A DNA stretch of 64,000 bases, taken from NCBI RefSeq assembly GCF_003334255.1, contig NZ_QOWU01000002.1; one strand, 5' to 3'. The notes beneath the pieces were generated by a model, which saw nothing but the letters and a program-made list of their open reading frames with translations, made no database searches and had not been told where the DNA came from. This DNA comes from Escherichia coli (GTDB taxonomy: Bacteria > Pseudomonadota > Gammaproteobacteria > Enterobacterales > Enterobacteriaceae). The translations under genes were made by a program, and so were the position numbers. Numbering within the stretch: position 1 is the stretch's first letter; each line of letters starts with the position of its first letter. Below are positions 55,821 through 56,010 of the stretch, one piece after another.

Positions 55821-55962
55821 TTCAGTACCTCACGACTCGGACAAAATGTCGTTGCGCGCACAGTACAGCGCAACTTATTTTGTTAAAAACATGTAAATGA
55901 TTTTTTATTGTGCGCTCAGTATAGGAAGGGTGTTTTCGGCTACAATCAAAACATGCCCGAAT

Positions 55963-55977
55963 GTGCACCAGGTGCAC
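55963..55977. promoter_or_regulatory. Perfect 15-bp palindrome in the mhpR-mhpA divergent promoter region (candidate MhpR operator)
   Basis: GTGCACCAGGTGCAC read directly; lies between the divergent mhpA and mhpR starts. Confidence 0.45.
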
Positions 55978-56010
55978 TACGTTGTTTTAACTATAGAAAT
56001 GTCAATTAAT

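Follow-up and report, generated by a model that had tools for sequence, protein, structure and literature searches.

Genomic context and composition of the palindrome

We analysed a 64-kb stretch of Escherichia coli DNA (the whole of which is hereafter called the window) that contains a palindrome between the genes mhpA and mhpR. Of 5426 complete genomes, 4897 contain similar sequence, flanked by genes annotated as mhpR and mhpA, and the 451 bases around the palindrome are 100% identical to those of strain G1/2. The two genes are divergent and are separated by an AT-rich spacer of 190 bp (55821-56010), while lacI and lacZ come after mhpR:

54156-55820, - strand: mhpA, 3-(3-hydroxyphenyl)propionate hydroxylase, first gene of the regulated operon (NCBIfam NF004827, 1283 bits, cutoff 966; RefSeq annotation)
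56011-56844, + strand: mhpR, IclR-family activator of 277 aa (Pfam HTH_IclR and IclR_C; NCBIfam NF007341, 343.9 bits, cutoff 269; RefSeq annotation)

The mhpR ATG at 56011 gives a start identical to that of K-12 NP_414880.2, and MhpR passes the NCBIfam equivalog cutoff. The presence of both HTH_IclR and IclR_C domains bears out the family that a preliminary description of this DNA had assigned to the regulator.

The palindrome, GTGCACCAGGTGCAC, occupies positions 55963-55977 and is built of two 7-bp arms (GTGCACC and GGTGCAC) with one A between them. It lies 143-157 bp upstream of the mhpA ATG and 34-48 bp upstream of the mhpR ATG, very close to the 35-50 bp given for the latter in the preliminary description. 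The 15-mer and its reverse complement are unequal at the central base, so that the palindrome is perfect only in the odd-length sense. A 9-bp direct repeat is also present in it (GTGCACCAG GTGCAC), an aspect of the element that arises because each GTGCAC hexamer is itself palindromic.

Using dinucleotide-preserving shuffles of the window and of the 190-bp spacer as the null model, we examined how often such an element might be expected by chance. The window contains 28 palindromes with 7-bp arms and a spacer of 0-4, compared with 24.2 +/- 5.9 in its shuffles, and a palindrome of this kind occurred in 1660 of 20000 spacer shuffles (8.3%). The palindrome alone is statistically unremarkable. That palindromes of this size are expected by chance lends something to the reading that it is a chance palindrome or the site of another factor (such as CRP or NtrC), with MhpR acting elsewhere; the evidence presented below makes this reading very improbable.

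Correspondence to the published MhpR operator

A footprint of MhpR at the mhp operator of E. coli was reportedly described more than 20 years ago. In Table 1 of an IclR-family motif comparison (PMC8222616, after Torres et al. 2003), the motif entered for E. coli MhpR is the 17-mer GGTGCACCTGGTGCACA. Read in the mhpA sense, the K-12 site is this same sequence (17/17 positions), and the site in the window, AGTGCACCTGGTGCACA, agrees with the published motif at 16/17. The sole difference between the window and K-12 within the 17-mer is the flanking base 55978, which is T in the window, C in K-12 and A in other strains; this base varies among E. coli strains and is not part of either conserved hexamer. 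The window site and the K-12 MhpR operator (Torres et al. 2003, J Biol Chem 278:27575; Manso et al. 2009) share the same locus, the same divergent context and 16/17 positions, and are one flanking base (55978) apart. According to the passages of PMC11237407 that treat the mhpABCDFE promoter, binding of MhpR to its operator there is stimulated by 3HPP and PP, and those of PMC8753852 on the catabolic promoter Pa describe a 3HPP-dependent activation by MhpR as well as CRP binding that requires MhpR.

The palindrome is very probably the already published operator of the IclR-type activator MhpR, serving the 3-hydroxyphenylpropionate degradation genes, and probably has no autoregulatory role at mhpR in E. 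coli. The proposal that the palindrome is the MhpR operator is upheld by its match to the published motif, the IclR-family membership of MhpR, its conservation with mhpR orthologues and its fixed spacing to a promoter, and the proposal that mhpA is activated through this site is upheld by the published MhpR activation of Pa and by the same fixed spacing to the catabolic promoter. The operator being already known, its recognition carries little weight as a discovery.

The site also resembles the operators used by PobR, PcaU, PcaR, and HmgR, IclR-type regulators that likewise control aromatic catabolism (the "GTNCG-N5-6-CGNAC" group in PMC8222616), in being an inverted repeat of 15-17 bp whose half-sites, GT..C / G..AC, are some 10 bp apart, in lying in a divergent regulator-operon spacer and in being associated with a regulator with HTH_IclR and IclR_C domains. 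However, the half-site is GTGCAC for MhpR and GTNCG for that group, and against the PcaR/PcaU/PobR subfamily model MhpR scores 126 bits, short of the cutoff of 284.75. An extra external direct half-site, as in PcaU, PobR, and HmgR, was not seen at the MhpR site, the flank of which (AAAACAAYG) is unlike a half-site.

Conservation of the operator across genera

To define the conserved part of the element, we scanned one genome per species and obtained 80 loci with MhpR relatives (54-98% identity) from genera including Escherichia, Citrobacter, Kluyvera, Pluralibacter, Shimwellia, Edaphovirga, Pseudomonas, Azotobacter, Marinobacterium, Zobellella, Nitrincola, and Xanthobacter, most of which have a divergent mhpA. 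The sequence GTGCAC-N3-GTGCAC is present upstream of mhpR in 69 of the 80 loci as an exact match and in 78 when at most one mismatch is allowed, although the spacer around the operator is not alignable between genera. It occurs 83 times in the 522,780 bp of orthologous loci, each time beside mhpR, whereas about one occurrence would be expected by chance (an estimate). The following elements were delineated:

55963-55977, no strand: operator core GTGCAC-CAG-GTGCAC, hexamers 9 bp apart centre to centre, centre at 55970 (published motif and conservation)
55962-55978, no strand: extended 17-bp motif T-GTGCAC-YAR-GTGCAC-A (cross-genus logo; 55978 is T in the window, C in K-12 and A in most genera)
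55979-55989, + strand: conserved block ACGTTGTTTTA (AAAACAAYG in mhpA sense) on the mhpR-side flank of the operator (invariant in enterics)

Because this conservation across genera is accompanied by identity with the published MhpR motif, the element is regarded as a functional site beyond chance, and the conservation tied to mhpR together with that motif rules out a chance palindrome. Conservation is confined to the two hexamers: the seventh pair of the arms (C...G in the E. coli palindrome) varies, and the central triplet is also variable (TAA in 25 sites, CAG in 12, TAG in 7, and others). The "perfect 15-bp palindrome" of the preliminary description is thus real and does lie in the divergent mhpR-mhpA spacer, but "perfect" applies in the odd-length sense alone and overstates the functional unit, which is two GTGCAC hexamers 9 bp apart. 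Of the 71 distinct sites in the logo, 47 have T at position 0 and 51 have A at position 16; positions 7 and 9 favour Y and R, being complementary in 52 of 78 sites. Both pairs (T0/A16 and Y7/R9) are reverse-complement symmetric, as would be expected of recognition by a two-fold dimer and not of a direct repeat.

Within E. coli, 4521 of 4888 records have an exact copy of a 30-mer that includes the palindrome, and those mismatches that were sampled sit in the flank. An equivalent of the ACGTTGTTTTA block is recognisable in most, though not all, of the Pseudomonas and other loci (L003-L082); candidate roles for this block are the edge of the MhpR footprint, a bend or an alpha-CTD contact.

The Vibrio loci L023 and L032 (V. 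cincinnatiensis and V. furnissii; MhpR identity 68-73%) contain no GTGCAC-N3-GTGCAC in the locus of about 6.8 kb. These are the only two of the 80 loci that lack the motif, and in both of them no mhpA adjoins mhpR.

NtrC and CRP were considered as other factors that might use the palindrome. A genomic SELEX study of NtrC reported an 88% peak, among the strongest, in the mhpR/mhpA spacer (map position 367,650 in old K-12 coordinates; PMC8743547), and the half-site words TGCACCA and GGTGCA of the NtrC box (TGCACCAnnnTGGTGCA) are both found inside the palindrome. However, these half-sites are 4 bp too close: they are separated by 0 nt and span 13 bp overall in the palindrome, compared with 3 nt and 17 bp in the NtrC box. 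No canonical NtrC box (TGCACCA-N3-TGGTGCA, 17 bp) was detected in the spacer with up to three mismatches, and we know of no sigma-54 promoter for the mhp genes. Binding of NtrC at the palindrome could at most be an additional cross-reaction in vitro. A CRP site of the form TGTGA-N6-TCACA was rejected, as the stretch over the palindrome (55959-55980) scores 10.1/20 with 5/10 core matches, compared with 16.9 for the lac CRP site in the window.

The same comparisons bear on the reading that the palindrome works as RNA, namely as an mhpR-leader hairpin with a U-rich tract after it that would serve as an attenuator or stability element. On the + strand, a scan for terminator-like sequences picked up GTGCACCAGGTGCAC with TACGTTGTTT behind it, and GTTGTTTTA after the palindrome is conserved. 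Such a hairpin might also relate to the post-transcriptional rise of mhpR mRNA at pH 4.4, where the mRNA is up 15-fold with promoter activity unchanged (PMC11237407). However, the hairpin is weak (-7.8 kcal/mol, z-score -0.99, with 29 of 200 shuffles folding equally well), and none of the nine single-hexamer mismatches (e.g., GTGCAT, ATGCAC, GTGTAC, and GAGCAC) is compensated on the opposite arm. The fixed arm sequence and these uncompensated mismatches imply recognition by a protein and not base pairing; moreover, the motif precedes promoters regardless of the orientation or distance of mhpR. An Rfam search returned no match. An intrinsic terminator or structured RNA was accordingly rejected on the grounds of the weak stem, the lack of compensatory changes and the lack of an Rfam match, and we consider an RNA function scarcely credible compared with a site bound by MhpR.

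Two variants of the operator arrangement were also observed. In E. coli Z1323HEC0011 (L085, NZ_CP148385.1), the GTGCACCAG unit has gained 18 bp, so that four GTGCAC hexamers follow one another, an expansion that looks like natural slippage of the direct repeat of the operator. A second GTGCAC-N3-GTGCAC lies just after the mhpR stop in L042, L047, L056, and L081, and with one mismatch in L072 (Marinobacterium loci and a few others), and this placement suggests that there may be a second MhpR-controlled promoter on the 3' side of mhpR.

Fixed geometry of the operator and the catabolic promoter

A scan of the spacer with the sigma-70 consensus detected no promoter, and promoters were therefore assigned from phylogenetic footprints. 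Absence of a sigma-70 consensus is expected for activator-dependent promoters. With the operator as the anchor, the 78 loci and the window were aligned in the mhpA orientation; the Escherichia, P. putida-group and P. fluorescens-group loci were counted and the rest inspected by eye. On the mhpA side of the operator, this alignment reveals two elements of Pa:

55940-55945, - strand: -35-like TTGTAG of Pa (exactly 17 nt from the operator edge; invariant in enterics)
55918-55923, - strand: -10 TATACT of Pa (CAGTATA invariant in the enteric alignment)

In the counted loci, TTGTAG or TTGTCG is found at a constant 17 nt from the operator, and a TATACT or CATACT -10 follows 16-18 nt past the -35 and 39-41 nt from the operator; by eye, the other loci have the same offset for the former and similar distances for the latter. 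Operator, -35 and -10 thus form a rigid module that is conserved from Escherichia to Pseudomonas, Azotobacter, Marinobacterium, and Xanthobacter. The geometry is kept even in loci with an mhpB-like first gene, in which the operator is 198-234 bp from mhpR.

With a transcription start placed 6-7 nt past the -10, Pa would begin at about 55911-55912 on the - strand and the centre of the operator would fall at -58/-59. The MhpR operator is said, in the abstract of Torres 2003, to be centred at -58 of Pa, and the CRP site of this promoter reportedly lies at -95.5 in the same work. A possible counterpart of the latter is found on the far side of the operator:

55997-56018, no strand: weak CRP-like site AAATGTCAATTAATATGCAGAA, centre 56007.5, candidate MhpR-dependent CRP site of Pa (crude score 10.7/20)

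This score is in the top 1.2% of window positions, and the centre of the site is -95.5 from the predicted Pa start. The TGTCA half of AAATGTCAATTAATATGCAGAA is conserved in Escherichia, Citrobacter, and two Kluyvera.

Four of the loci with an mhpB-like first gene (L024, L025, L026, and L029, from Pseudomonas/Stutzerimonas) have the operator and a TAGAAT -10 before an operon that begins with an mhpB-like extradiol dioxygenase. Their second gene is acyl-CoA-dehydrogenase-like and takes the place of mhpA, and the operator is 198-234 bp from mhpR.

The mhpR promoter and the question of autoregulation

The preliminary description had taken the closeness of the palindrome to the mhpR ATG as a sign of autoregulation, and the position of the mhpR promoter Pr relative to the operator is relevant to this claim. 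Two candidate elements of Pr were found on the mhpA side of the spacer:

55844-55865, no strand: best CRP-like site of the spacer, AAATGTCGTTGCGCGCACAGTA, centre 55854.5, candidate class II CRP site of Pr (score 13.3/20)
55881-55889, + strand: candidate extended -10 TGtTAAAAA of Pr (TTGTTAA invariant in Escherichia, Citrobacter, and Kluyvera)

The score of AAATGTCGTTGCGCGCACAGTA is in the top 0.06% of window positions, and the site is specific to Escherichia. These elements would place the start of mhpR at about 55895, with a leader of about 116 nt and the CRP centre (55854.5) at -40.5, and the operator would then be located at about +69 to +83 of the mhpR leader, outside the core promoter. 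Pr is said, in the abstracts of Torres 2003 and Manso 2011, to be independent of MhpR and dependent on CRP, in a class II arrangement with the CRP site at -40.5. For mhpRp2, a CRP activator site is annotated from -38 to -59 and a -10 signal is seen near -20 (Reg-Seq, PMC12132413), which is consistent with the AAATGTCGTTGCGCGCACAGTA site and a start annotated 8 nt downstream of about 55895. The supplements of the Reg-Seq and PredCRP papers, which we searched, gave no mhpR promoter coordinates or CRP site sequences, and literature searches on autoregulation and on "MhpR" with "Pr promoter" found no relevant paper.

Another possible -10 for Pr, TACAAT (55941-55946, + strand), was rejected. It is the complement of the -35 region of Pa, it reads GACAAC in the P. 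fluorescens group, and it is accompanied by neither a -35 nor a properly spaced CRP site.

Several observations would fit an operator with a dual purpose, from which MhpR both activates Pa and represses or blocks transcription of mhpR. Many IclR-family regulators autorepress, the operator is 34-48 bp from the mhpR ATG, and in 70 of 78 loci the distance between the operator end and the start of mhpR is 18-36 nt. Where Pseudomonas spacers measure 118-130 bp, moreover, the promoter of mhpR has to lie across the operator or ahead of it. However, a PmhpR:lux fusion carried by wild-type MG1655 was expressed constitutively, and neither 3HPP nor PP altered this (PMC11237407), a result obtained in an MhpR-containing strain that compares inducer and not the presence and absence of MhpR. 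In the reconstructed leader, a site at +69 to +83 is where a bound activator would be a weak roadblock at most. In addition, 5 of the 78 motif-bearing loci have the operator 173-234 bp away from the start of mhpR yet still beside the catabolic promoter, indicating that the operator tracks its target promoter and not mhpR. We therefore regard a dual-purpose operator as distinctly unlikely in E. coli, and the autoregulation deduced earlier from closeness to the mhpR ATG finds no backing in the unresponsiveness of PmhpR:lux to 3HPP and PP (PMC11237407) or in these five loci. At the mhp locus, nearness to the start codon of the regulator predicts autoregulation poorly.

Autoregulation or promoter interference might still account for the closeness of operator and mhpR outside E. 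coli (e.g., in the P. fluorescens group with its 118-130-bp spacer), or the leader site of E. coli might act as a conditional roadblock or, through cross-binding of NtrC, link mhp to nitrogen status; we consider these possibilities, taken together, fairly unlikely.

Returning to the operator as an activator site of Pa, we propose that a dimer of MhpR (or a dimer within a tetramer) would recognise the two GTGCAC hexamers with two-fold symmetry. Pa, a promoter composed of the -35-like TTGTAG and the -10 TATACT on the - strand, would have the operator centre about 58 bp ahead of its start, and MhpR bound to 3HPP or PP would activate transcription of mhpABCDFE from the operator and, as the literature has it, would also help CRP to bind the weak site further upstream. 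The binding and activation steps of this scheme are taken from the literature, as is the lack of an inducer response of PmhpR, and both transcription starts and both CRP sites enter it as predicted positions. With the mhpR promoter nearer to mhpA, the operator of E. coli would be located within the mhpR leader and would not be autoregulatory.

Further features of the mhpR-mhpA spacers

If the predicted starts are right, Pa (about 55912, - strand) and Pr (about 55895, + strand) converge, and their transcripts overlap at the 5' ends by about 18 nt (55895-55912). With each -10 then at about +23 to +28 of the opposite transcript, the two promoters could interfere with one another.

The predicted mhpA 5' leader contains an inverted repeat at 55851-55874 (GTTGCGC / GCGCAAC; 7-bp arms, 10 nt apart), which shares bases with the highest-scoring CRP-like site of the spacer. 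The repeat is at the core of the fold predicted for this leader (-20.9 kcal/mol), which is unremarkable at a z-score of -1.2.

Pseudomonas loci with long spacers (L031, at about 2805-2880 on the - strand; L036, L039, L041, L045, L046, L048, L051, and L065) have a conserved upstream ORF of 24-28 aa, with the N-terminus MRHACL or MCHACL, a Shine-Dalgarno-like GGGGAA and a start about 102 nt from the operator start. Lying between the Pa-like promoter and mhpA, this ORF may encode a leader peptide.
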